Source of the DNA: Saprospirales bacterium
Lineage (GTDB): Bacteria > Bacteroidota > Bacteroidia > Chitinophagales > UBA8649
Length of the DNA: 64,000 bases
Direction of reading: 5' to 3'
Assembly (NCBI GenBank): GCA_002708985.1
Contig: PAPS01000018.1
Coordinates: 263 to 64,262 of the forward strand
Part shown: piece by piece, positions 42,018 through 55,863 of the stretch
Numbering within the stretch: the first letter of the stretch is position 1
How the letters are laid out: every line of letters begins with the position of its first letter
Notes under the pieces: generated by a model
The model's database searches: none
The model's input: the letters and a program-made list of their open reading frames with translations, nothing else
What the model was told of the DNA's origin: nothing
Translations under genes and position numbers: made by a program

Positions 42018-42992
42018 TTATTTATCCCCTTTTGGCGGCTCCGAAATCGAATTACGCATAGAAGTATCCGCTTGAATGTTCTGCAGTCGGTAATAGTCCA
42101 TAACACCAAGATTGCCACCTCGGAAAGCTTCTGCTAACGCTCTAGGTACTTCTGCTTCTGCTTCAATAACTTTAGCGCGCATCTCTTGGGCTTTCGCCAG
42201 CATCTCTTGCTCTATGGCAATCGCCATTGCTCGACGCTCTTCTGCTTTTGCTTGGGCAATATTTTTGTCTGCATTGGCTTGGTCTATCTGTAGCTCCGCA
42301 CCAATGTTTTTTCCTACATCCACATCGGCAATATCAATGGATAAAATTTCAAATGCTGTTCCAGAGTCTAGTCCTTTCTCCAATACCAATCGAGAGATTG
42401 TGTCAGGATTTTCAAGCACCGCTTTGTGGGAGTTTGCTGAACCAATTGACGTGACAATACCTTCTCCTACACGCGCTAAGATGGTTTCTTCTCCAGCACC
42501 ACCTACGAGCTGTCGGATGTTGGCACGAACCGTAACGCGTGCTTTACCAATCAATTGGATTCCATCTTTTGCTACGGCGGTAACCGGAGGTGATTCAATA
42601 ACCCTTGGGTTTACCGAAAGTTGAACGGCTTCAAAGACATCACGTCCAGCTAGATCTATAGCTGTGGCATCATTAAAGGATAACTCAATGTTTGCCTTGT
42701 CTGCTGAGATTAATGCATTAATCACTTTAGATACATTTCCACCTGCAAGGAAGTGAGCTTCTAACAAATCCCTTTCAACGGTAACTCCTGCTTTGGTAGC
42801 TGTAATCATAGCATTAACAATTGTTGAAGGCGGAACTTTCCGAAGACGCATAGCAAAGAGTGCCGCAATGCCTACCCGCACTCCTGAGAAAAGTGCTGTA
42901 ATCCAAAGTCCAATCGGTATGAAGTAAAAGAATAATATCAAAAAGAGTATCGATAAACCGACTGAAACAAAGAGTAAAATTGAAGGGTCCAT
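42018..42992 (-). CDS. floA: Flotillin-like protein FloA (SPFH, YqfA/UPF0365)
   Basis: N-terminal hairpin [19 protein letters not shown]..., SPFH core, and an A/E-rich C-terminus. Confidence 0.9.
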
Positions 42993-43022
42993 AGGATATT
43001 TAGTTTATATATGAAAATAGCT

Positions 43023-43499
43023 CTATTCTTGAACTATTTGGACAATTAATTTTTGATGTTGTATTTCGACTACCGTCACATGGGCACCCGACTGAATGTA
43101 GCCATTTTGGGCTTGCGCTTCGAAACGATGACCGTTGATTTTAATGGTTCCGTTTGGTCGCAACGCACTAATTGCAGTTCCCGTATTACCAAGCTGAACC
43201 TCCTCAAAATATTCTTGCTCATTCACCCTGCCTTTGATTTCTTTTTCAACGAGTGATAGGGATTGACTTTGCCCCATTTTCTTTCCTAAGAAAAACATGA
43301 GTATAGATAGTCCAACAGTAGAAAGAAGTGCGACATTTCCCAACCATGCGGGTTCATTGGTATAGGCAAAGTATAAGGCAGCTACAATGGCACCTGCTCC
43401 TGCCACGCCGAAAATTGTTGTTCCAGGTATCAAAAAGACTTCGATCATTATAAAGAAAACACCCAGCGCAATGGTGAAGAGTATAAGTCCAGTAATCAT
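43023..43499 (-). CDS. nfeD: NfeD family membrane protein
   Basis: N-terminal TM helices plus a C-terminal OB-like domain (GTAISALRPNGTIKINGHRFEAQAQNGYIQSGAHVTVV). It sits directly upstream of floA. Confidence 0.8.
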   Translation of the reverse strand: MITGLILFTIALGVFFIMIEVFLIPGTTIFGVAGAGAIVAALYFAYTNEPAWLGNVALLSTVGLSILMFFLGKKMGQSQSLSLVEKEIKGRVNEQEYFEEVQLGNTGTAISALRPNGTIKINGHRFEAQAQNGYIQSGAHVTVVEIQHQKLIVQIVQE

Positions 43500-44516: not shown

Positions 44517-45344
44517 CTAGCCTTTTGATGCTTGCTTTTCTTTTTGCGCCTTCGCTTCTTCCATTATGACTTGGTAGTTGTTCAATATGGCACCTACTAC
44601 TAAGTTGAGTAGAAGAAAGGCAGAAAGGACAAACCAGGATACGTGATAAACATTCACTACGAGTTTGCTGGTTGGAATAATTTCAAGTTCTGCCGCTTTA
44701 TCGAGGTTATACTTTAAATCGGTCCAATCCTCTCCTGTGAGTATCCTAAAGAGCGTAAACATTGTCTCATCTAATGTGCCATAGGGGTCAGGAGACACAA
44801 CGGGCGCATTGGGTGCTAGCTCTGCATATATGTCAAGTTTTGTTTGCAATGTGGGCTGTGCCGAGTTATAGTCTGGTAATTTAAATAAGGTTACACCAAT
44901 CACGGCATAGAGATAAAGAAAGATTGAAAAGAATATAGCATTATAAAACAGCGATCGAAAAGAGCGTGCAAGGACTGAGACAATAAGCTTTATCTCCTCA
45001 GATGTTCGCAGTAATCGCAAGACACGAAATACTCGGAGTACTCGAATAGCTGAGATCATTTGAGCATTCTCAAACATAGACTCAGGTACAAAGCTGATGG
45101 CAACAATTGTAAAATCAAAAATATTCCAACCATCACTGAAGTATTCCTTGGCTGTATCGCTTGCCGCCATGCGCAGGACCACTTCAACGGTAAATATTAC
45201 TAGGCATAGTAACTGAATTGAGGCAATGGTTGGGTTGGTCATGTAGGTTTCAACCCCAATCAACAATGAATTTATCAGAATGACACCGATTATTGCCGAC
45301 TCAAAAAATCGGTCAGCCACGAGGGCCTTAAGCGTATTTTTCAT
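44517..45344 (-). CDS. Single-domain 6-TM voltage-gated cation channel (BacNav/NaChBac-like) with a Cav-like TGEDW filter
   Basis: S4 is IRVLRVFRVLRLLR (5 Arg at every third position). The pore is FTLFRILTGEDWTD (codons 44718..44741). The S5-P loop is long. Confidence 0.85.
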   Translation of the reverse strand: MKNTLKALVADRFFESAIIGVILINSLLIGVETYMTNPTIASIQLLCLVIFTVEVVLRMAASDTAKEYFSDGWNIFDFTIVAISFVPESMFENAQMISAIRVLRVFRVLRLLRTSEEIKLIVSVLARSFRSLFYNAIFFSIFLYLYAVIGVTLFKLPDYNSAQPTLQTKLDIYAELAPNAPVVSPDPYGTLDETMFTLFRILTGEDWTDLKYNLDKAAELEIIPTSKLVVNVYHVSWFVLSAFLLLNLVVGAILNNYQVIMEEAKAQKEKQASKG

Positions 45345-45363
45345 GTCTTACGAACTATGGTTG

Positions 45364-45711
45364 TTATTCACTGAGTCGGCTAACGATTCCGGCACTCAAG
45401 GAAACGAATACAAGCAAGGTTATTCCTGTCACAATGATATACATTTTTTCGAAGGGTAGCTGAAAAGCAAATACAATATGTTCAACGAGAAGCACAACAA
45501 AAAATAGCAGCCCAAGCACTCTTAGATTTGTTTTGGCACCATAGGCTTTAAAACTTAATGCTAAGGCGCTTATAAGGGTTAGGAAGCTAGATGCAAAAGC
45601 GCCTACTGTAACAAGCGTTTTGATATTAGGCGCAGCCACAGTGTGAATGCCAAAGGCAATGAGTGCGGCAACACCAAATACAACAATGGATTGAGCTAAA
45701 TTAACTTTCAT
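45364..45711 (-). CDS. Small 4-TM membrane protein
   Basis: Start moved to MKVNLAQSIVVFGV. Four hydrophobic helices. It overlaps the upstream gene by 11 nt. Confidence 0.5.
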   Translation of the reverse strand: MKVNLAQSIVVFGVAALIAFGIHTVAAPNIKTLVTVGAFASSFLTLISALALSFKAYGAKTNLRVLGLLFFVVLLVEHIVFAFQLPFEKMYIIVTGITLLVFVSLSAGIVSRLSE

Positions 45712-46072
45712 GGTTTGTGTCGTGGTTTGATTTGGGAATAGGCGGGGGTAGGAGGGCAACAAGCTTGAGCACTTCTGGAAGTTGCTCTGCAATTTCCCAG
45801 CTAGCCATACCAGGTTTCCACATGTAGGTATGTCGATTGATGGACTTATTTTCTACAAGCTTTAGCATTTCAGCATTGGTCAGCGGGCCAATTCGATCAC
45901 CATTCACCACGGCATAGTAGTCAGATGATGGAGGACTCATAGCATTCATCGCACCTGGTACATGCATGTTTTGCATGGTTTGATTCATCGACTGAATCAT
46001 TTGCTGGGCTACTGCCATACTCATACCAAATTCTATCAGGCGGTCAACGGAAAAAAAGTCGCTATCATTCAT
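45701..46072 (-). CDS. Met/Gln-rich protein with a GYF_2 (DUF4339) domain
   Basis: The first ATG (MNDSDFF) forms a TAATG overlap with the upstream stop. GYF_2-like YYAVVNGDRIGPLTNAEMLKLV...TYMWKPGMASWEIAEQLPE is followed by LLPPPIPK. Confidence 0.65.
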   Translation of the reverse strand: MNDSDFFSVDRLIEFGMSMAVAQQMIQSMNQTMQNMHVPGAMNAMSPPSSDYYAVVNGDRIGPLTNAEMLKLVENKSINRHTYMWKPGMASWEIAEQLPEVLKLVALLPPPIPKSNHDTNHES

Positions 46073-47031
46073 TATCTGCAATTAGTGGTTAAGGTTCGTT
46101 TAAGTGACCCTGTAAAAATGAGCAAAGTTCTCCATCGATAGAACGCTACTCCTGGAACTTCCATATGAATTCCCCCTCCTTCTCCGGTTCGTGCATCTCG
46201 CCTGTGGCCATCTATAATAATGGGCGCAAAAAGTTTTAACCAACCGTCTTTTTTAAAAGATGTAATGTCTTCGTAAGCCAAAAACCTAAGTTCTGCACTG
46301 CCTACCTTTTTATTGCCTTTCCAAAACACGCCTTTAGACGTGACTAAAAAAGATGGTGAGTTTAGCCCCCGTTTGCCGCTAAACAACGCTGGTTTGTAGG
46401 CTTTACCCCTTTCCGAAGTAACATTTTTGGCTTTCAAAGTCTTTTTGATTTGCTTAAAGGCACTACTAGACAGTGCTTCGTGAGGTGCTATGGTTACATC
46501 TCCTAGTAAACGAATTTTTTTTCCAATAATCCCTTCGTAGGTAAATACTTTAATAGACTCATAAGGCAGGAATGAACTTCTTGTCTTAAACCATCCCTTT
46601 CTTATATGACTCACTCCTTTGTCTCCTAAAACAATTACTTCTCGTTTGGAAAGCCATCGAGAGGGCGACAAAATAGGGAACATAGTAATGAGCTTTTCAC
46701 CTTCTGTTTCAGCGTGGCTTGCAGATCCACCATTTTTGGAGATATGGTCTTTAATCGATTCAATCGTTGGTCTTGAACAGACAAATTTAATCGTGTTAGC
46801 ACTGCCGCCTCCCGCTTTATATCCCGTCTCCATTTTACTACCTAGTAACCCAAGTGAGGTGTCAAAATAGATGATGTTTTTGATGGTCAAACTTCGCTGA
46901 CTAGGCTTCCAGAAGAATAGGCCAAAAAGCTTAAAACGATAGGTTATCTGATTACTATCCAACTCTAAACTCTTTATCCCGAATGATCGCAGGGAGACGA
47001 TTATATTACTTTTGATTGTTTGGGTTTCCAT
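46072..47031 (-). CDS. Hypothetical protein; apparent triple bacterial-PH-like repeat
   Basis: Three ~100-aa modules share the same pattern: ITYRFKLFGLFFWK..LTIKNIIYF, VSHIRKGWFKTRSSFLPYESIKVFTY and VFWKGNKKVGSAELRFLAYEDITSF. Confidence 0.4.
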   Translation of the reverse strand: METQTIKSNIIVSLRSFGIKSLELDSNQITYRFKLFGLFFWKPSQRSLTIKNIIYFDTSLGLLGSKMETGYKAGGGSANTIKFVCSRPTIESIKDHISKNGGSASHAETEGEKLITMFPILSPSRWLSKREVIVLGDKGVSHIRKGWFKTRSSFLPYESIKVFTYEGIIGKKIRLLGDVTIAPHEALSSSAFKQIKKTLKAKNVTSERGKAYKPALFSGKRGLNSPSFLVTSKGVFWKGNKKVGSAELRFLAYEDITSFKKDGWLKLFAPIIIDGHRRDARTGEGGGIHMEVPGVAFYRWRTLLIFTGSLKRTLTTNCR

Positions 47032-47049
47032 ACAATAGTTAGTTTGACT

Positions 47050-48420
47050 TTATTGCGGTGGCGGTGGTGGAGTTTCCCCTGCTGGTGGAGGAGGTGGTGG
47101 TGGGGGCGGGGTAGCAAATAACGGAGCGAGCTCTTGAACTTCTCCGGCTAATGCCCAATTAGCCATTCCTTGCTTCCACACATGTGTTTCTTTTGTAAGC
47201 TGACCACTCTGACTGAGCTGTTGTAGCTGCTGCCATTCAAATGGACCACTTTGCTGGCCATTGACCGATATATTGTACTGTACCTGAGGTGGTGGTGGGG
47301 GCGTCTGATTTGGCTGATTCATACCCTGCATCATGTTACCCATCATGCCTGCCATTCCTGAACCTACTGCGCCACCCATAGCCATGCTTGCCATCATAGA
47401 GCCTGGATCCATACCTCCCCCTGCTCCGGTACCGCCACCACTGCCCATTTTTCCTAAGCTTTCTGCAGCGGTTTTGGCAACATCGGTTTGTTGATTGAGT
47501 TGATGGGCACCCATAAAGTTGGTCTCTGTTTGAAGTTTTTGTGCTCGTTGGGCCTCTTCTCTTTGAATACGCAATGCCTCTGACATATTTTCTGCATTAA
47601 TCTCTTGTGTGTCCTTCAGATTCTTGATATTGACGTCGGTCTGCGCCGTGATGGTTTTGCTCGTTTGATCAGCTGTTACCTTACGCAGTTCAGCATATCC
47701 TGCAGATTCTTTATCCACTTCAAGCGTAGCAATGTCAAGCCCCTTCATGTTTACACCGAAATCATTGACTAGTCGGCTGCCTAAGTAATTGGCGACAAGG
47801 TCATTAATCTCTAGAATTTTGCGTTCCATTTGTATGACTGGGATGCCATTATCTGCCGGGATATTGGTAACCACGGCTTTAATATATTTCGTTACCGCAT
47901 CTTTTACCTGTTTTTTGAAATCATCAAGTTCAAAGTTGATTAGGCGATTCAATTTTATAAAGCCCTTATAATCTGTCACATTAAACGTTAGGGTTCCCCT
48001 GACCGCCATAGGAACTGCAAAGTCAGCAAATCGCGGATCAAAAACATCGAAGTAAGGAATTCCAAAGCGTATCTGTACATTCCCAGAAAGATTGATGAAG
48101 TAAATCTCGGCTTGAAATGGTGAAGCACCTCCAAAGGCTGTCCCAACAAGGCTGGTTAAGATTGGAAAGTTGGCCGTTTGGATGGTTTGATCATGAGGGC
48201 CCATGATGTAGTCTTGGTTCTCTCCATCTTTTTGGGGATAGACAAATACCGCCATTTCTCCATCCTTGACGCGTAAACTACTTCCATAACGTATGGCGTT
48301 CTCTTTGTTTGTGGAGTTTGCCTCTCCAGAGGGTCTCCACTTCCACACGAGGTATTCTTGCTCATCACATCGGATGACGTCCATCATCCCACCTTCTTTT
48401 TTATTTCCAAATAGTCCCAT
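47050..48420 (-). CDS. SPFH protein of the YdjI/COG4260 (Band_7_1) type fused to a coiled coil, a Gly/Met-rich segment and a GYF_2 domain flanked by polyproline
   Basis: MGLFGNKK...LVWKW..., GGASPFQAEIYFIN, and GTLTFNVTDYKGF. The GYF_2 region is YNISVNGQQSGPFEWQQL...HVWKQGMANWA. The tail is PPPPPPPPPAGETPPPPPQ. Confidence 0.75.
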   Translation of the reverse strand: MGLFGNKKEGGMMDVIRCDEQEYLVWKWRPSGEANSTNKENAIRYGSSLRVKDGEMAVFVYPQKDGENQDYIMGPHDQTIQTANFPILTSLVGTAFGGASPFQAEIYFINLSGNVQIRFGIPYFDVFDPRFADFAVPMAVRGTLTFNVTDYKGFIKLNRLINFELDDFKKQVKDAVTKYIKAVVTNIPADNGIPVIQMERKILEINDLVANYLGSRLVNDFGVNMKGLDIATLEVDKESAGYAELRKVTADQTSKTITAQTDVNIKNLKDTQEINAENMSEALRIQREEAQRAQKLQTETNFMGAHQLNQQTDVAKTAAESLGKMGSGGGTGAGGGMDPGSMMASMAMGGAVGSGMAGMMGNMMQGMNQPNQTPPPPPQVQYNISVNGQQSGPFEWQQLQQLSQSGQLTKETHVWKQGMANWALAGEVQELAPLFATPPPPPPPPPAGETPPPPPQ

Positions 48421-49166
48421 TATTTAATTTTTAGAGTTGAAGCATATTGGTTAATTTCTTCTAATGTTTTTTTGTCATCCTTCATAGAAAATCTTGCCTT
48501 CATGATAACTTGTTCGCATTTCGCATGCCACACATTGACAAAGGTATTATGCACTTTGTTTTCAGGCTTTTCAGCTGTAAAAAAGTTTCCTTTTTTCTGC
48601 GCTCTTGGTAGTGCGAGTGAAAGGAATTCAAGCATATCTTCTTTGGTGGTAGGGATGGGAAAATTTGATATAATAGCCATTTTTTTTCGGTCTACCTTGC
48701 CAGGTCCTGATATATCAGAAAGTACGTCTGAGAAAGCCCCTCCAATCGCTGAGAATGGATTGTCCGTTTGTTTTTCCATGACTCTCATATCCTCGGCTTC
48801 ATTGAGCATCTTAAATAGACGTTCAATGGATGAGTTGGCATCGACATTGGTAAATGCATGGTTGCAGTAACCGCAACTTGTTTTAAATGATTCTACCATG
48901 GCGCCACATGAAGGACATTTTTTTACATCACCATATTTGTCTGACTTGGGTGCTGCAGGGGCCGGAGAAGGAGTAGGTGGGGGCGGAGCACTGACTTGCA
49001 TCGCCTGCTTTTTTTCAAACAGTCTTGCATCGAGCACCATTTCAAACTCATCCAAGTCGATGCCCATGGCTTCGGCTTTTTTAAAGAGAACTTGTTTTTC
49101 TTTTTCGGTGAGTTCTCCATCCATAAGGGCCATTTCGATAAGCTTTTCTATTTGTTCGTTGTACAT
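48420..49166 (-). CDS. TerB-like helical motif plus zinc-ribbon protein
   Basis: MALMDGELTEKEKQVLFKKAEAMGID, then the Pro-rich linker SAPPPPTPSPAPAAP, then KCPSCGA...CGYCNH. The stop overlaps the SPFH start as TAATG. Confidence 0.5.
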   Translation of the reverse strand: MYNEQIEKLIEMALMDGELTEKEKQVLFKKAEAMGIDLDEFEMVLDARLFEKKQAMQVSAPPPPTPSPAPAAPKSDKYGDVKKCPSCGAMVESFKTSCGYCNHAFTNVDANSSIERLFKMLNEAEDMRVMEKQTDNPFSAIGGAFSDVLSDISGPGKVDRKKMAIISNFPIPTTKEDMLEFLSLALPRAQKKGNFFTAEKPENKVHNTFVNVWHAKCEQVIMKARFSMKDDKKTLEEINQYASTLKIK

Positions 49167-49182
49167 AGTTTAAATATATCTA

Positions 49183-51072
49183 TTATTTGACTGCCTTTTC
49201 CAAGGGAAACTCTTGCCTTCTTATTTCTTCAGTAACGCTCAGAACTTGGTCGCTTGCTGTACGAGTGATTTCGAAAAGATTTTCCTCAATGATTGTCTTT
49301 GAGTTGATTTCAGAATCATTTTCAAAAGTCAATACTGGAAGTTCATCACTTTTCTTGTAAAATGCAATGTAATCCTTATGATATATTTCCTTAGAATAAC
49401 CTGATCGATATTGTTTATTTATGAATGTTTCCTTAGTATTAATAGTGAAGTTTATTTTGGAGTTGAGCGGTATTTGAAATCCATAAATATTGCTTAGGAT
49501 ATGTTCTTGGGCTAAAGCACTATAGCCTTCATCAAGCGACTGACCTTCATTGTTGAACGTGAAACTATGTTCGCCATCATCAAGCCTATCCAGCGAATCC
49601 TTATTATCTTTTATGAAACTTAGTGTGGCTTCATGATTTGGTCCAAACTCTAGAATTTCTGAATCATTCTGTTCAATCAGCAAGTTAGTGATTTGTGATT
49701 TTAGCTCCTCATTTTCATAGGATGATTCATTGTTATAAATTAAAGCCGCGGAATCAATTTTACCCTGATCGATAAGGCTAGTAATAAATCGATTAACGAC
49801 ATCATCATATAGACCATCATCCCACTGCATACTATCATTTTGATATAAACTAATGGTTGCATAAGCTGAATTCTCTTGGTTTTCGTCTACGAGCGATTGA
49901 ACGTATTTGTTGATGATTATATTGAAAAGAGTTGCATCATTAAAGAGCTCTTGATCTATGTATAGATTAAGAGCTTGTAGATAGTTTTCTGACGGGATTT
50001 CACTGTAGGATGTTGTTGATACATCTTGGTCATAACCCCAACCGCCATTGTTATAAGAATCATTTCTGCTCCAATTATCAGGATTAAGATAGTTGTTAAT
50101 CTCTTTTCTAAGTGTTTCTATCTCAAGCGCTAATCGTTCCTCCGCTTCTCTTTTTTCTCGGGCTATGCGCTGATCTTTTGTTTCCTGCTCTACAAGTTCA
50201 ATAATGTTGAAAGCATCCCATAGGTAACTATGATAATAATCTTGGGTAGCCGAGAGGTCTCCTGGGGTTGCTCCTGGGAAGTTGTAGTCCATAAAACTCG
50301 ATTTATAATTATCGTAGATCCCGTAGTGTCGGGTGTATTGAAATGTATAGGGTATATTTTCGAGTGTAGCCGTATCTTGATTTTGCATGGCATTCGATAT
50401 TTGGCTGAAGTAGGCAATTTGCTCTTCACTTGCCTCTTCTCGTTCTGTAATCTCTCCTGTCTGGGTGTTTTTTGAGATGTAACTGAGCTGAAATCCGTTA
50501 TCATAGGTAATCGTAGTCCTCCATTTACCCTCCAAAAAGACAATATCTCCGTCGAGTAATCCCTTGTCATTCATTTTTCCTGTTATGGAAAAGTCTCGTG
50601 TTTTGTAGCTAAAGCTTCCGCTACCTACGTTATTTACAAAACTTACTGATTTCGCTTCTCCAGACTCTGTAATACTCCAAAGACCGTTGGCGTACCCCAT
50701 TGCGTAGTCCGTTTTGCAGGTGGCTGACGAGGTTCTTCCCGATTCTGTGAAAGAATATGTAGTCGTAAAGTCTCCGTTTCGTAAATGATCCTTGTAGGTA
50801 CCTTTAACGGATACTTTTATCTTATCTCCTGTACTTCTGCCATCCCATGTGCTGATGTTTTTAGTTACATCATAACGAAAACTTCCGTCATATAAACGAT
50901 TGCCTTCCTCATCTTCGTAATAGCTATAGGTAGCCCTGCCGGTAGTAAATTCAAGACTTATTTGTGACCCACTACCTGATGCTGTGTATTCTCCGGTGTA
51001 GGTTTTGCGAGATTGAGCATACGTGGTTAAGGAAAAGAGAGCTAAGACTATGAGGGTTATTTTTGATTTCAT
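49183..51072 (-). CDS. Secreted 629-aa protein of unknown family
   Basis: Signal peptide MKSKITLIVLALFSLTTYAQ. The N-half is G/T/Y-rich and beta-like (weakly MORN-like). The C-half is acidic and helical. Confidence 0.5.
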   Translation of the reverse strand: MKSKITLIVLALFSLTTYAQSRKTYTGEYTASGSGSQISLEFTTGRATYSYYEDEEGNRLYDGSFRYDVTKNISTWDGRSTGDKIKVSVKGTYKDHLRNGDFTTTYSFTESGRTSSATCKTDYAMGYANGLWSITESGEAKSVSFVNNVGSGSFSYKTRDFSITGKMNDKGLLDGDIVFLEGKWRTTITYDNGFQLSYISKNTQTGEITEREEASEEQIAYFSQISNAMQNQDTATLENIPYTFQYTRHYGIYDNYKSSFMDYNFPGATPGDLSATQDYYHSYLWDAFNIIELVEQETKDQRIAREKREAEERLALEIETLRKEINNYLNPDNWSRNDSYNNGGWGYDQDVSTTSYSEIPSENYLQALNLYIDQELFNDATLFNIIINKYVQSLVDENQENSAYATISLYQNDSMQWDDGLYDDVVNRFITSLIDQGKIDSAALIYNNESSYENEELKSQITNLLIEQNDSEILEFGPNHEATLSFIKDNKDSLDRLDDGEHSFTFNNEGQSLDEGYSALAQEHILSNIYGFQIPLNSKINFTINTKETFINKQYRSGYSKEIYHKDYIAFYKKSDELPVLTFENDSEINSKTIIEENLFEITRTASDQVLSVTEEIRRQEFPLEKAVK

Positions 51073-51084
51073 ATGGAAAATATT

Positions 51085-51104
51085 TTATGGAATTAAAATA
51101 CCAT
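51085..51104. promoter_or_regulatory. Second copy of the ttatggaatt...aataccat motif, 13 nt upstream of the 629-aa gene start
   Basis: See 21912..21937. The tatgg/ccata arms are separated by 10 nt. Confidence 0.3.
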
Positions 51105-51274
51105 AAATCCATCATTAAATACTGTCTAAAGCTTTTTGTTTTGTATTTAATTATCAAGGCCATAAAGAAAGGCCGCTATGCAATGGCAGTCTTTTTTCTT
51201 GTAGTACTCCAACCATAATCAATAATTACACGGTATAATCTTTTGCTAACCTATACTTTACCGATATTTACTAC

Positions 51275-53193: not shown

Positions 53194-55134
53194 CTATTTC
53201 ACAATGAACATTGCATTGAATGTAGTATTATTCGTACTTAAAGTCAAGATATATTGGCCATTTGTTAGCGCAGAGACATTAAAATTGACAAACCCATTAG
53301 TGATTTCGGTTTTGCCGTAGTCGAGCTGTTTACCTGAAAGGTCATTTATTGAGAAGTTTGCCTCTGCATTGATATTCTCGCGTAACATTACTGTAAGCTG
53401 GCTTATGGCAGGAATAGGGAATGCTAAAATGTTAATAGATTCGATTTGTTCAATGCTCGATGTTGGATTCAGTGAAAAATCTGTATCAAAACGAGGAAGA
53501 ATCTGATAGCCCTCCGTACGCGGAGCAGATGGATCAAACTGAGAACCGATACCGACAACATCAAAGCTACCCTGTAGGGTAAGCACATTATTAAAGATCA
53601 CTTCGCGGTTGGCATCAATTCGAATATCATAAGTATTGCTTCCGTCCGTAGCATTTACATTAAAACTTGATCCGGATGCAACGTCCCATAGTCCTTGTAG
53701 ACTAAGGTTGTTGATTCGGATTAGTTCTGCTTCTTCAACCTCTCCGAGAGGACCTGTAACTACAGTAGTGTCATAGTTGCTGCTCACTCCTCCTTGGAAA
53801 AGGTTGTTCAAGAACGAAAGTCTTGTAACACCACTCGACATGGTAATGCGTCCTGCAACAACCACAGAATCTCCCACGGTGGGCATGTAACTAATGGATG
53901 AATCTGGGGTATATACCCAAATACTTCCGGTACCATCGGTCATTGAAAATTCAACTCCATCGAATCCTTCTCTAAAATCCGGACTTGTCACAACGCCTTT
54001 CAGGGTATGGGTGTTGCCAAAGGAGTCAACATCTCCGTTAGCATTAACCGAGGTGACAGCACCAATTGTTGCATCTGGATACGTAACAAGATTAACACAT
54101 TGTCCTGAAGGACTTGCTGTAATATCAATATTGTAGTAGGGTTGAAGCTGATATCCAGTATTGTACGGCGTGTTAAAGGTAAATTGTCCGACCGTTCCTT
54201 GGATATCAACTGTATCAGAACTAGGTGCTGACGCTGAAAATAATTCGGTATTATTATCAATCCTAATAACATATGAATTACCTGCGTTATCGATTGCATC
54301 AACATTAAAACCAGCACTGACTGCAGGATCTGGCGGCGAGGAAGGCCAGTCGGAAGTGTCCAACACCAAACAACTGACTTTTACAAACTGAGATTCAATA
54401 TCCTCTCTAAGCTCTTGATTGTAATTCTCTGCGACAATAGTTGGAGGAGTATTATCTACAATAGTAATCGTTGCTACCATTTGGGGATGGTATTCACAGA
54501 TGTAGTAGTATGTGCCTGGAGTACTGGGAATCCACTCTATAACTCCCGATACCGCACCATTATTTGGGATAGCAGGGATTTCAGTAGGTGGTAAAACACC
54601 CGTTGTCGAAAGCACGAATGGATGTCCTGGCGCACCAACATTAAAAGTTAGTGTATCACCTAAATATGCTAGTAACGAAGGGTCATTGCCATTTACTGAA
54701 CCTGCTCTATCAGCACCTACAACAGTGTAGTTGAACATGCTAGACGCGGAGACATCATAGGTATGATTTTCAGGCGTGGTGGTTTGAACTTCGTACATCG
54801 TATCGATTAATACTTGAGTTAGCCCATTGTAAAATCCGATTTCTCCTCTAACTACAACCAAATCTCCGCGATTTACATTGTAGCCAAAGTTGTTGGTGCT
54901 ATTAAATGCACTTATTCCACCTGATGAATCTTGCATACCAAAAAGTAATCCAGGAGGTCGGAAATTCCCGCTGTTTACAATACCTCTTAATTCGACAAAG
55001 GCTCCTGAACTGTCAGGTTCTCCAGTTGAACTCGTCGTATTTATTTCATTAATAAAATAGGGCACGTATTGCGCGAAACTTACACTTACATTGAGCGCGA
55101 GTGCAGTTAAAAGGGTAGGTATAAAATATTTCAT
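53194..55134 (-). CDS. T9SS-secreted multidomain protein: LTD/OB-like modules with an inserted cupredoxin domain
   Basis: Start moved to MKYFIPTLL (signal peptide). Cupredoxin ligands are GAPGHPF ... YYYICEYHPQM. OB-like segments are RGDLVVVRGEIGFYNGLTQV and VGDSVVVAGRIT. The C-terminus is T9SS-type. Confidence 0.65.
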   Translation of the reverse strand: MKYFIPTLLTALALNVSVSFAQYVPYFINEINTTSSTGEPDSSGAFVELRGIVNSGNFRPPGLLFGMQDSSGGISAFNSTNNFGYNVNRGDLVVVRGEIGFYNGLTQVLIDTMYEVQTTTPENHTYDVSASSMFNYTVVGADRAGSVNGNDPSLLAYLGDTLTFNVGAPGHPFVLSTTGVLPPTEIPAIPNNGAVSGVIEWIPSTPGTYYYICEYHPQMVATITIVDNTPPTIVAENYNQELREDIESQFVKVSCLVLDTSDWPSSPPDPAVSAGFNVDAIDNAGNSYVIRIDNNTELFSASAPSSDTVDIQGTVGQFTFNTPYNTGYQLQPYYNIDITASPSGQCVNLVTYPDATIGAVTSVNANGDVDSFGNTHTLKGVVTSPDFREGFDGVEFSMTDGTGSIWVYTPDSSISYMPTVGDSVVVAGRITMSSGVTRLSFLNNLFQGGVSSNYDTTVVTGPLGEVEEAELIRINNLSLQGLWDVASGSSFNVNATDGSNTYDIRIDANREVIFNNVLTLQGSFDVVGIGSQFDPSAPRTEGYQILPRFDTDFSLNPTSSIEQIESINILAFPIPAISQLTVMLRENINAEANFSINDLSGKQLDYGKTEITNGFVNFNVSALTNGQYILTLSTNNTTFNAMFIVK

Positions 55135-55281
55135 AAGTCTAATTGACCTAAATATATTAAATGAGTTTGGTGTCCTGTCTATCGGAGGATTATCATATTG
55201 TAAACAAAATGTGCTACGCGTGGATAAGTCTACTACATTTGCAATGCAATGCAAGATTCTTCGATAAAGAGTTATCCTGTG

Positions 55282-55863
55282 ATGGAATCGTTTCTCTCCA
55301 TACAAGGGGAAGGCGGACACCAAGGTAAAACAGCCCATTTCATTCGATTAGCAGGATGTGATGTGGGATGTCCCTTTTGTGATGTACCCGAGTCGTGGGA
55401 ATCTGAAGGCCACGAGACTCGGACAATTACTGATATATCGCGAGAAGTCGAAGAGAGTCCTGCTCCTTTTGTGGTAGTTACAGGTGGAGAGCCAGCAATG
55501 CATGATTTAACGCAATTGACAGACATAGTTCATGGGCACAAACGTCAGACACATATAGAAACATCTGGAGCATATCCATTGAGTGGATCTTGGGACTGGA
55601 TATGTGTATCTCCCAAAAGATTTAAAAAACCGCTCGATAGTGTCTTATTGCAGGCTCACGAAGTTAAAGTAGTTATAGCCCATCGTAACGACTTGCGCTG
55701 GGCTGAGAAGTTTGCCAATGCGGGAAATGAATCTACTCGTTACTTTCTACAACCTGAGTGGTCGGTAGTGGATGAAGTAATGCCACAAATTCTTTCTTTT
55801 ATGAATGAAAACATCCAGTGGGAGCTCAGCCTTCAAATTCATAAATACATAGGACTGCCATGA
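55282..55863 (+). CDS. queE: 7-carboxy-7-deazaguanine synthase (radical SAM)
   Basis: MESFLSIQGEGGHQGKTAHFIRLAGCDVGCPFCD. Confidence 0.85.
   Translation: MESFLSIQGEGGHQGKTAHFIRLAGCDVGCPFCDVPESWESEGHETRTITDISREVEESPAPFVVVTGGEPAMHDLTQLTDIVHGHKRQTHIETSGAYPLSGSWDWICVSPKRFKKPLDSVLLQAHEVKVVIAHRNDLRWAEKFANAGNESTRYFLQPEWSVVDEVMPQILSFMNENIQWELSLQIHKYIGLP

Follow-up and report, generated by a model that had tools for sequence, protein, structure and literature searches.

A conserved SPFH–GYF module of Bacteroidota and its facultative link to a predicted NavPp-type voltage-gated channel

The subject of this analysis is a block of seven genes, here called g1 to g7, on the minus strand of a stretch of 64,000 nucleotides (nt) of contig PAPS01000018.1 (positions 263 to 64,262; we call this whole stretch the window), which comes from a marine Saprospirales/Chitinophagales metagenome-assembled genome (MAG). 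The block belongs to a module that is widespread in Bacteroidota and apparently undescribed, and at its centre stands g3, a soluble protein that combines an SPFH domain with a GYF domain. With moderate confidence we read the block as a conserved modular SPFH–GYF membrane system, in which a sub-membrane scaffold would organize or regulate membrane effectors. Its genes and their principal features, with amino acids abbreviated as aa and window positions throughout, are the following:

49183..51072, minus strand: g1, secreted or periplasmic protein of 629 aa with a signal-peptide-like N-terminus; accessory
48420..49166, minus strand: g2, cytosolic adaptor with a helical hairpin and a zinc ribbon, from profile matches; core
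47050..48420, minus strand: g3, soluble SPFH–GYF protein, from Pfam; core
47710..48306, minus strand: SPFH (Band_7_1) domain of g3, aa 39-237, Pfam PF13421
47128..47271, minus strand: GYF_2 domain of g3, aa 384-431, Pfam PF14237
46072..47031, minus strand: g4, three PH-like modules, from an AlphaFold2 model and Foldseek; accessory
45701..46072, minus strand: g5, small GYF_2 protein of 123 aa, from Pfam; core
45364..45711, minus strand: g6, protein of 115 aa with four transmembrane segments, from hydropathy; core
44517..45344, minus strand: g7, predicted voltage-gated cation channel of 275 aa, from Pfam Ion_trans; recurrent accessory
44718..44738, minus strand: selectivity filter TGEDWTD of g7 (residue 203), a sequence motif
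51073..51274, no strand: AT-rich spacer of 202 nt between g1 and a divergent threonine-aldolase-type gene, the presumed promoter region

The evidence that carries this reading is the conservation of the gene neighborhood. Related loci were gathered by anchoring on g4 in a genome collection, on g3 in metagenomes and by exact-protein look-ups, and on g7, and the seven proteins were mapped onto them by tblastn. Removal of near-duplicates left 87 loci, and each gene was scored only on contigs reaching far enough to hold it (loci with room). So counted, the frequencies are 68/68 for g2, 70/71 for g5, 38/42 for g6 and 14/42 for g4, and the gene order is always g2–g3–(g4)–g5–g6. Orthologues of g2, g3, g5 and g6 are found together in essentially every related locus and are not scattered; the stable unit is g2-g3-g5-g6, with g4 as a common insert and g1, g4 and g7 as accessory genes. 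Two close relatives of the window illustrate how quickly the accessory genes turn over. In the closest sister genome (L001, g4 89% identical), g2-g6 are accompanied by g1 and a truncated g1 paralogue, the downstream neighbor is a different one and the channel is missing, while a second relative (L104, g3 91% and g7 90% identical) retains the channel together with the rlmH/NfeD/FloA synteny and is devoid of g4. The seven-gene operon of the original prediction is thus tightly coupled and has a conserved core, but it is not a fixed seven-gene unit. Elsewhere the accessory genes again code for membrane-proximal proteins, namely PH/bPH proteins, small proteins with two to four transmembrane segments, Lys-rich amphipathic repeat proteins (LEA/YtxH-like by eye) and hairpin–zinc-ribbon proteins with transmembrane or TPR regions. 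A search of plasmids recovered only distant SPFH proteins (<30% identity), and we take it that the module is not plasmid-borne.

The N-terminal domain of g3 is a clear Band_7_1 (PF13421/COG4260; 81 bits against a gathering cut-off of 24, E=1.3e-22), which is followed by a helical or coiled region, a Gly/Met-rich low-complexity segment and, at the C-terminus, a GYF_2 domain (PF14237; 65.3 bits against a cut-off of 25.8, E=4.3e-18) enclosed between two polyproline tracts. This bears out the prediction of an SPFH protein of the YdjI/COG4260 type extended by a GYF domain, just as the GYF_2 match of g5 (51.2 bits against 25.8, E=1e-13) bears out that of a small free-standing GYF protein. Homologues of g3 carry names such as 'SPFH domain-containing protein' or 'virion core protein (lumpy skin disease virus)', the latter being the name given to COG4260. 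Hydropathy indicated no transmembrane or other hydrophobic segment in g3, and neither its sequence nor Pfam revealed any pair of cysteines, hence no C-terminal zinc ribbon. The family comprises more than 8000 clusters, and the best-scoring 120 of these, with Bacteroidota, Flavobacterium, Nonlabens and Crocinitomicaceae among their source names, are all 81-97% identical to g3. Within the same loci identities fall far below this for g2 (~60%), g5 (~50%) and g6 (~35%). Such a difference points to constraint on a structural hub and not to recent transfer, and fits a hub role for g3 under strong constraint, as judged from these identities.

The polyproline tracts are themselves conserved. A run of at least three prolines (PPP) precedes the domain in 81/82 and follows it in 82/82 distinct g3 homologues, and flanking polyproline recurs even in a homologue of Firmicutes-like origin at 52% identity. 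Both the SPFH+GYF architecture and the proline tracts flanking bacterial GYF domains were noted earlier (Balaji and Aravind 2007, PMC2034487), and binding of a bacterial GYF domain to a proline-rich sequence has been demonstrated experimentally for GltJ and AglZ (PMC11135422). Among PDB sequences the only match of g3 was in fact the GYF domain of GltJ (7z3c), and the only NCBIfam matches were weak ones to GltJ over the GYF region (19.7 bits against a cut-off of 450). In g5 a conserved N-terminal helix (FFSxDRLxEFGM) leads through a Met/Gln-rich stretch to the GYF_2 domain and a PPPF-type tail; a Pro-rich tail, typically LVALxPPPF, lies behind the domain in 57 of the 64 g5 homologues. Given that g5 aligns to residues 343-441 of g3 in tblastn, it is a paralogue, or free-standing copy, of the C-terminal part of g3, and Met-rich stretches are present in both proteins.

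From the N-terminus on, g2 consists of a hairpin of TerB-like helices (aa 6-42), a linker that varies, a four-cysteine zinc ribbon (aa 84-101) and, at the C-terminus, a helical domain in which an FPxP motif is invariant. The cysteines of the ribbon, CPSCG..CGYC in the window (CPxCG..CxxC in general), are invariant across 43 g2-family sequences, and Zn_ribbon_3 matches 41/43 members with a best value of 2e-6, single scores lying below the Pfam cut-off in models that are very short. Comparison of the g2-family profile with the PDB returned only generic, bL32-type zinc ribbons. The hairpin is less readily assigned: g2 scores 18.6 bits against TerB (PF05099), for which the cut-off is 24.4, and aligns to profile positions 78-114 of 118 only. 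A TerB match was obtained in 27 of 43 family members at E<=0.01 (best 9.7e-5), never above the Pfam cut-off, and the ~40 residues concerned, which amount to the last third of the profile, also resemble DUF533 and DjlA-N. Of the predicted combination of TerB-like and zinc-ribbon elements, the ribbon is therefore solid, whereas the TerB part comes down to a half-domain motif below the cut-off. Likewise, the predicted Pro-rich linker is there in the window but is not general, being a lineage-specific trait of 14/73 homologues. Hydropathy gave no transmembrane segment in the window g2, no NTF2-like match emerged from Pfam or the family profile search, and a single-sequence AlphaFold2 model was unusable (predicted local distance difference test score, pLDDT, 49; predicted template-modeling score, pTM, 0.26). 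The hairpin recurs in additional paralogues, present in many loci, on bodies made of a zinc ribbon and transmembrane segment, a zinc ribbon and TPR, or a transmembrane segment only (L010, L024, L037, L051, L081, L093, L095, L108 and L111), and by this distribution it is a portable module. When all seven proteins were run against PHROGs, g2 weakly matched a tellurite-resistance family, g7 matched a family of unknown function, and nothing was obtained for g1, g3, g4, g5 and g6.

A reduced form of the module was seen on contigs from phage collections, on which a g2-like gene with two zinc ribbons is joined to an SPFH–GYF gene (47-52% identical to g3) in the absence of g5 or g6. These dyads lie at L115:6579-8732 and L116:9217-11275 (both IMG/VR) and at L017:13515-15881 (GenBank MT835670). 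The ORFs of L116 are phage-like by eye; L017 is an unverified record with ABC-transporter- and LytTR-like ORFs and may be chromosomal.

The remaining core protein, g6, shows four hydrophobic segments, as had been predicted, and no Pfam family was recognized in the window copy or in 30 homologues; we presume it to be a membrane anchor. Six small accessory transmembrane proteins from other loci are likewise without a Pfam family. For g4, which had been read as three PH-like modules, Pfam offered only bPH_2 at E=0.028, and one homologue has bPH_3. The AlphaFold2 model computed from a 20-sequence alignment (pLDDT 72.8, pTM 0.67) does contain three modules, each a beta-sandwich with a helix. In Foldseek its best PDB matches were FACT-containing RNA polymerase II elongation complexes, followed by Spt16M, Pob3M, Rtt106, BBS5 and a bacterial DUF1696 PH domain, with a probability of 1.0 for Spt16M, Pob3M, Rtt106 and DUF1696-PH at template-modeling scores of only 0.25-0.48. 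The three repeats are seen in a model of moderate quality, while the sequence match to PH families is weak and the structural scores are low. The g4 family is tiny, with 81 clusters at 90% identity and 72 at 50% among 1.84 billion (1.84e9) representatives, and in L059 a single-domain bPH_1 protein fills its slot. Homologues of g4 at 47-48% identity were also seen alone, beside unrelated genes, in three Flavobacteriales MAGs (L003:1018-1962, L004:3396-4340, L005:493-1437).

The first gene of the block, g1, codes for a protein with the signal-peptide-like N-terminus MKSKITLIVLALFSLTTYAQ; Gly/aromatic beta-repeats make up its N-terminal ~200 aa, and its C-terminal part is helical. No family was found for it in Pfam, NCBIfam, PHROGs, PADLOC or PDB, in keeping with the prediction of a signal-peptide protein of no recognizable family. 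The eight g1-like proteins collected gave no Pfam family either, and the g1-family profile found nothing among PDB sequences. Proteins of this kind, with 20-30% identity over the N-terminal repeats, are encoded directly 5' of g2 in 6/34 loci with room (L001, L041, L054, L086-L088), and in L104 a 257-aa lipoprotein takes the place of g1. The truncated paralogue in L001 (L001:6498-7859) sits between g1 and g2, measures 453 aa and is 59% identical over the N-terminal 300 residues.

The last gene of the block is predicted to specify a voltage-gated cation channel of the AnclNav/NavPp type. Its Ion_trans match (151 bits, E=3.3e-44 in Pfam), its S4 segment RVLRVFRVLRLLR (residues 101-113, with five arginines at every third position) and its filter agree with the original call of a voltage-gated channel with six transmembrane segments, in a single-repeat protein. 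The filter TGEDWTD is found in 90 of 122 g7-family members. Published filters are TLEDWTD in NavPp and TLEGWVD in CavMr, the latter a native Ca2+ channel, and both channels are placed in the 'ancestor-like' BacNav group (PMC8677417). The best PDB matches of g7 are eukaryotic Cav/Nav repeats, its pore resembling repeat II of Cav1.2 (ILTGEDW), and channels of the NaChBac and NavAb type align to it only over the voltage sensor and S5.

The linkage of this channel to the module is real but facultative. Directly behind g6 it was observed in 2/41 loci anchored on g3 or g4 (L036 and L074, at 37 nt in L074). When the channel itself was used as the anchor, 3/8 homologues lay inside the module (L104, L108-110, and the Prevotella sp. 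loci L111-112) and 5/8 stood alone among housekeeping genes. The order in L108-110 is g2 (with a transmembrane segment)–g3–g5–g6–a 94-aa Lys-rich protein–channel–two small transmembrane proteins, and that in L111-112 is g3–g5–g6–a zinc-ribbon/transmembrane protein–a hairpin/zinc-ribbon protein–channel. At 68% identity to Prevotella-type channels, of which P0264 likewise lies in the module, but only 52% to g7, the channel of L074 falls into a channel lineage other than that of g7. Since the channels are divergent and the genes between g6 and channel differ from lineage to lineage, the linkage spans divergent lineages of both channel and module. Four channel-linked lineages can be distinguished, namely the window with L104, L036, L074, and the Prevotella-type L108-112. 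With the family occurring about once per genome, adjacency to g6 in four lineages is, by informal judgment, far beyond chance. The claimed link of the channel to the predicted operon therefore holds, with the qualification that the association is optional. We also observed, inside the operon of channel-bearing Bacteroidales versions, genes for small proteins rich in lysine that contain KDxAKD(F/Y)AK repeats and by eye resemble LEA/YtxH proteins (L074:11391-11606 and L108:5666-5950).

At the level of the locus, all seven ORFs are present in the ORF table of the window with exactly the stop coordinates first given. The mechanically called ORFs for g5 and g6 are longer, TTG-start versions of 45701..46072 and 45364..45711; the ATG starts at 46072 (g5) and 45711 (g6) are preferred because the homologues begin at those residues, with MNDSDFFS in g5 and MK(V/I)N in g6. 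With these starts the predicted junctions from g1 to g7 are confirmed at 16 nt, a 1-nt overlap, 18 nt, a 1-nt overlap, an 11-nt overlap and 19 nt. A convergent rlmH gene (SPOUT_MTase) lies 27 nt beyond the end of the block, and on the 5' side of the block a divergent Beta_elim_lyase gene lies across the AT-rich spacer, which had been put at 200 nt, measures 202 nt, and is where we infer the promoter to be. A scan with a sigma-70 model, which is ill-suited to Bacteroidota, gave promoter hits at chance level, and Rfam had no match in or beside the window operon. Terminator-like hairpins within the block number 5, against 5.5±2.2 in shuffled sequence, which is the chance level, in a scan likewise ill-suited to Bacteroidota, and agrees with the view that the block has no internal terminator. 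Its G+C content is that of the flanks save for the Pro/Gly-rich tail of g3, and at least six further assemblies from the same population share the gene arrangement together with an identical channel protein.

Two non-coding elements were encountered in related loci. The Rfam 'DUF805 RNA' cis-regulatory motif (RF03081; 76-79 bits, with the gathering score at 51) falls precisely within the spacer between g3 and g4 in four loci (L007:9911-9979, L022:2461-2530, L002:9909-9978, L031:3435-3504) and is absent from the window, where this spacer is 18 nt, and from seven other g4-containing loci that were scanned; it may regulate the optional PH-like gene separately. The other is an element of ~240 nt 5' of g2 that is more conserved than the genes (L010:6448-6690 and equivalents in L002, L021, L022, L029, L045, L048, L056, L061, L064, L069, L090 and L094). 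It abuts the ATG of g2 in most of these loci, is not present in the window, and includes a hairpin of terminator type, GAGTGTGGCTGC…GCAGCCACACAC, with a T-run behind it. Behind g6 there is a copy at 72% identity, and more copies lie elsewhere in the same loci. Rfam had no match for the element, whose near-invariance leaves almost no covariation to be seen; it may represent either a leader/attenuator or an intergenic repeat in multiple copies.

Elsewhere in the window, a second and unrelated SPFH pair, made up of FloA (324 aa) and its partner NfeD (158 aa), is encoded on the minus strand at 42018-43499, about 1 kb past the channel gene. Further off, at 53194-55338 on the same strand, a 714-aa ORF has a cupredoxin-like motif by eye (…YYYICEYHPQM…); its signal-peptide-like stretch is internal, at about residue 69, and relatives have a Por_Secre_tail in that neighborhood.

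These features can be combined into a mechanism. We propose that g3 would form oligomers, a ring or a cage beneath the inner membrane, as other SPFH proteins do. Because g3 is without a transmembrane segment, it would have to be docked by partners, a part that g6 may play here and that transmembrane-bearing g2 paralogues may play in other lineages, in parallel to the recruitment of soluble YdjI/SamI by YdjG/YdjH in Bacillus subtilis. The GYF domains of g3 and g5 may bind their own flanking polyproline tracts, much as the GYF domain of GltJ binds the Pro-rich sequence of AglZ. Such contacts would provide multivalent and switchable cross-links, with g5 as a possible cap or competitor, and the PH-like g4 may contribute binding to membrane or peptide. 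The resulting platform would cluster or gate membrane effectors, the channel being one of several clients. In the window the effector would be the NavPp-type channel, tuned in the way that stomatin-family proteins tune eukaryotic channels, and its inclusion in the module suggests a bacterial counterpart of stomatin-controlled ion channels. The most likely role is a response to perturbation of the membrane or of the membrane potential, with phage attack included as one such stress. The original label of a membrane-microdomain and ion-flux stress module can hence be kept as far as a conserved membrane-associated SPFH module with a link to a channel is concerned; the ion-flux part has to be loosened, the channel being facultative.

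Several points weigh against this proposal. The channel is missing from most loci, including the closest sister genome, and most of its homologues stand alone (5/8), so the core would work without it. The partners are not homologous to YdjG and YdjH, which turns the Bacillus precedent into an analogy. About one third of the loci lie among defense genes, a setting that came as a surprise, that the original prediction does not mention and that a generic 'membrane stress' label leaves unexplained. Furthermore, the oligomerization, the docking by g6, the binding of GYF domains to Pro-rich sequences and the effect on the channel are all deduced by analogy for every member of the module.

The third of these points calls for a closer look at the neighborhoods. 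Strong PADLOC matches to known or candidate defense genes occur within 10 kb in at least 11 of ~34 non-redundant loci, whereas defense-type Pfam families were found in 0/5 channel-only control loci; these are plain counts, and we regard them as suggestive, the module being possibly tied to phage defense. Examples are listed here by locus, with RM for restriction–modification and IS for insertion sequence:

L010-12: CBASS cyclase/E2, Type III RM, PglZ
L009: IS element, AbiEi/Eii
L007: PD-T4-3, DUF262/HEC-06
L025: PD-T4-3, Type I RM
L057: ThsB-like TIR (6.5e-16)
L074, L095: PDC-S01
L093: GajB-like helicase
L068: DUF499

A frequent immediate neighbor is PD-T4-3, a 233-aa GIY-YIG protein encoded on the same strand 33 nt behind g6 in six loci and 54 nt behind it in L025 (L007:11651-12154, L025:4977-5675, L056:11975-12676; also L064, L068, L069 and L070). 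We considered this gene as an effector of the module and rejected it, because it is a full-length PD-T4-3 (PADLOC match of 3.7e-53 over its whole length for the L056 copy), that is, a stand-alone defense gene. In L091 a PD-(D/E)XK gene between g2 and g3 (L091:4693-5871) corresponds to PDC-S26 (4.8e-104). In the window itself no defense genes lie near the operon, and PADLOC-DB v2.0.0 had no match for g1 and g3-g7, and for g2 only PDC-S48 (E=0.0058) over the hairpin. Housekeeping genes surround the operon in the window and in many other loci (rlmH, folD, proteorhodopsin/blh, mur ligase), L013-16 for instance being beside proteorhodopsin and blh.

The main rival reading of the module would make it an anti-phage system of the abortive-infection type, in which the SPFH, zinc-ribbon and GYF proteins sense a perturbation of the membrane or an injection and release an effector (g6, small transmembrane proteins or the channel) that collapses the membrane potential. 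We think this doubtful, though deserving attention. Besides the neighborhood counts and the lack of defense families at the channel-only loci, it gains from PD-T4-3 close behind g6 in seven loci and PDC-S26 inside the unit, from flanks that vary in almost every locus, from the turnover of accessories between relatives of ~90% identity, and from the dyads on phage contigs. The Shango defense system contains TerB-like domains, which recalls the g2 hairpin. However, apart from the g2–PDC-S48 match at E=0.006 there is no match in PADLOC-DB v2, candidate systems included; the module has no enzymatic effector; g3, at more than 80% identity across orders, is far more conserved than the usual defense proteins; and many loci, the window among them, lie amid housekeeping genes. 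The adjacent nucleases are self-sufficient single-gene systems, which speaks for co-location and not for shared function, and the figures are plain locus counts. As for how such a system might operate, it is conceivable, though we would not expect it, that GYF–polyproline contacts hold an SPFH cage together and that this cage silences the effectors and releases or opens them on membrane breach or depolarization, for example during injection of a phage genome. With a similarly slight chance, the silenced effectors could be the four-transmembrane protein, the small transmembrane proteins and, in some lineages, the voltage-gated channel. Were surveillance of this kind to exist, it would be the first defense system to use an SPFH scaffold, and a bacterial voltage-gated channel would for the first time be given a physiological role, as a regulated effector.

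A more restrictive view would confine the functional unit to g2-g6 and see g1 and g7 as closely packed chance neighbors, with the channel acting independently. The absence of the channel from L001 and from 39/41 loci anchored on g3 or g4, the housekeeping contexts of 5/8 channel homologues, and the limited spread of g1-like genes (6/34 loci) are what one would expect in that case. Yet four separate lineages have the channel right behind g6 and in the same orientation, which in our judgment exceeds chance by far; the channels concerned are 52-58% identical to g7 and the intervening genes differ; in L108 more operon genes lie beyond the channel; and g1-like proteins recur at one and the same position despite identities of 20-30%. 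We therefore hold this view to be unlikely. The proposal that zinc-ribbon–GYF proteins act as general switch modules (PMC11135422) raises the further thought that the module is a GltJ-type signaling switch for gliding motility or surface machinery in Bacteroidota. It does unite a zinc ribbon (g2) and GYF domains (g3, g5) in one operon, and GltJ supplied its only NCBIfam matches and the sole PDB match of g3. But these NCBIfam matches are far under the family cut-off (19.7 against 450 bits), the zinc ribbon and the GYF domain here reside on different proteins, and no motility, type IX secretion or MglA-type genes are conserved beside the module in the loci examined. Moreover, the module is also found in gut and rumen bacteria of the Prevotella type, and the dyad in phages of Firmicutes-like hosts, all of which makes this switch very improbable. 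An outside chance at best attaches to a TerB-type metal or metalloid stress system with Met-rich segments as Cu/Ag ligands, for which one could cite the sub-threshold TerB/DUF533/DjlA-N-like hairpin of g2 and the Met-rich stretches of g3 and g5. Against this, the hairpin covers just one third of the TerB profile and in no case reaches the cut-off; neither further ter genes nor metal transporters or regulators form a conserved part of the neighborhood; and the Met-rich regions are cytosolic low-complexity segments like that reported in YdjI (PMC8581546).

The module bears on a class of proteins, those with an SPFH domain, that are abundant in bacteria and for the most part still without a function, and of which the only studied Band_7_1 member, YdjI/SamI, uses partners that are absent here. 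It represents a second and much more widespread Band_7_1 partner set, in Bacteroidota, with the g2–g3 dyad extending to Firmicutes-like phages. As the GYF domains are flanked by their own probable ligands, the logic of the interactions is directly testable. The repeated independent capture of a NavPp-type channel is apparently the first genomic hint of cooperation between a bacterial SPFH protein and a voltage-gated channel, and offers a concrete handle on the long-open role of such channels in bacteria, while the frequent defense-island setting makes the module a candidate for phage-defense screens.

The searchable literature yielded no description of a Band_7_1/GYF_2/TerB/bPH combination, of an SPFH anti-phage system or of an SPFH–voltage-gated channel operon matching this system, and the suspicion that the domain combination is undescribed can be maintained to that extent. 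Among known systems, PD-T4-3 and PDC-S26 are related to the module as frequent immediate neighbors in other genomes and Shango through the TerB-type helical motif of g2; their genes are not in the window, however, and no module protein matches any PADLOC model, the marginal g2 hit aside. FloA–NfeD and QmcA–YbbJ are two-gene SPFH operons with a dedicated membrane partner, but they pair a membrane-anchored SPFH protein of the Band_7/FloA type with NfeD, and the module has none of those families. Channel regulation by the stomatin family, as in MEC-2/MEC-4, stomatin/ASIC, STOML3/Piezo and podocin/TRPC6, shares with it the pairing of a cation channel with an SPFH protein that is oligomeric on the cytosolic membrane face. 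Here, in contrast, the pairing is genomic only, the channel is a voltage-gated single-repeat one of the BacNav type, and g3 belongs to another SPFH subfamily and is without a membrane hairpin. With NavPp and CavMr (Shimomura et al. 2020; PMC8677417) g7 has in common the single repeat of six transmembrane segments and a canonical S4, its filter differing from that of NavPp at one position. It is set apart by the glycine at filter position 2, a long S5–P turret, its Bacteroidota clade and its place within an SPFH operon, of which we found no report for NavPp or CavMr.

GltJ of Myxococcus (PMC11135422) similarly has a GYF_2 domain beside proline-rich sequences and a zinc ribbon in the same system, whereas in the module the domains are split over three proteins and tied to an SPFH hub, with no MglA, AglZ or motility context. 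The closest parallel is with YdjGHI/SamGHI of B. subtilis, where the membrane proteins YdjG and YdjH, encoded in the same operon, are required to bring soluble YdjI/SamI, a Band_7_1 protein, to the membrane, and where YdjI/SamI forms dynamic foci that respond to membrane stress (PMC8581546; bioRxiv 10.64898/2026.02.06.704340). YdjG consists of two zinc ribbons, an NTF2-like (YpeB-related) domain and a transmembrane segment, YdjH is a TPM-domain protein, YdjI ends in a zinc ribbon, and pspA heads the operon (PMC11237479). Common to both systems are a soluble Band_7_1 hub with a low-complexity segment and, encoded beside it, one protein with a zinc ribbon and one that is integral to the membrane. 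They differ in that g3 ends in polyproline–GYF–polyproline and not in a zinc ribbon, that g2 has one zinc ribbon and the TerB-like hairpin without the NTF2-like domain and transmembrane segment of YdjG, that the four-transmembrane g6, of no known family, stands in place of YdjH, and that an extra GYF protein, the PH-like protein and the channel have no Bacillus counterpart. TPM_phosphatase matched none of the seven proteins in Pfam, and we accordingly rejected g2 and g6 as homologues of YdjG and YdjH on their domain content (no NTF2-like domain, transmembrane segment or TPM domain, respectively). Neither Pfam nor NCBIfam matched PspA_IM30 in the seven proteins, as had been anticipated, and none was seen in the related loci, the rest of the genome having not been searched. 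The parallel to YdjI drawn at the outset thus stands for the hub, which is of the same subfamily, but not for g2 and g6. On this domain evidence the module is a different set of partners around the same SPFH subfamily, and not a member of the PspA–YdjGHI system.

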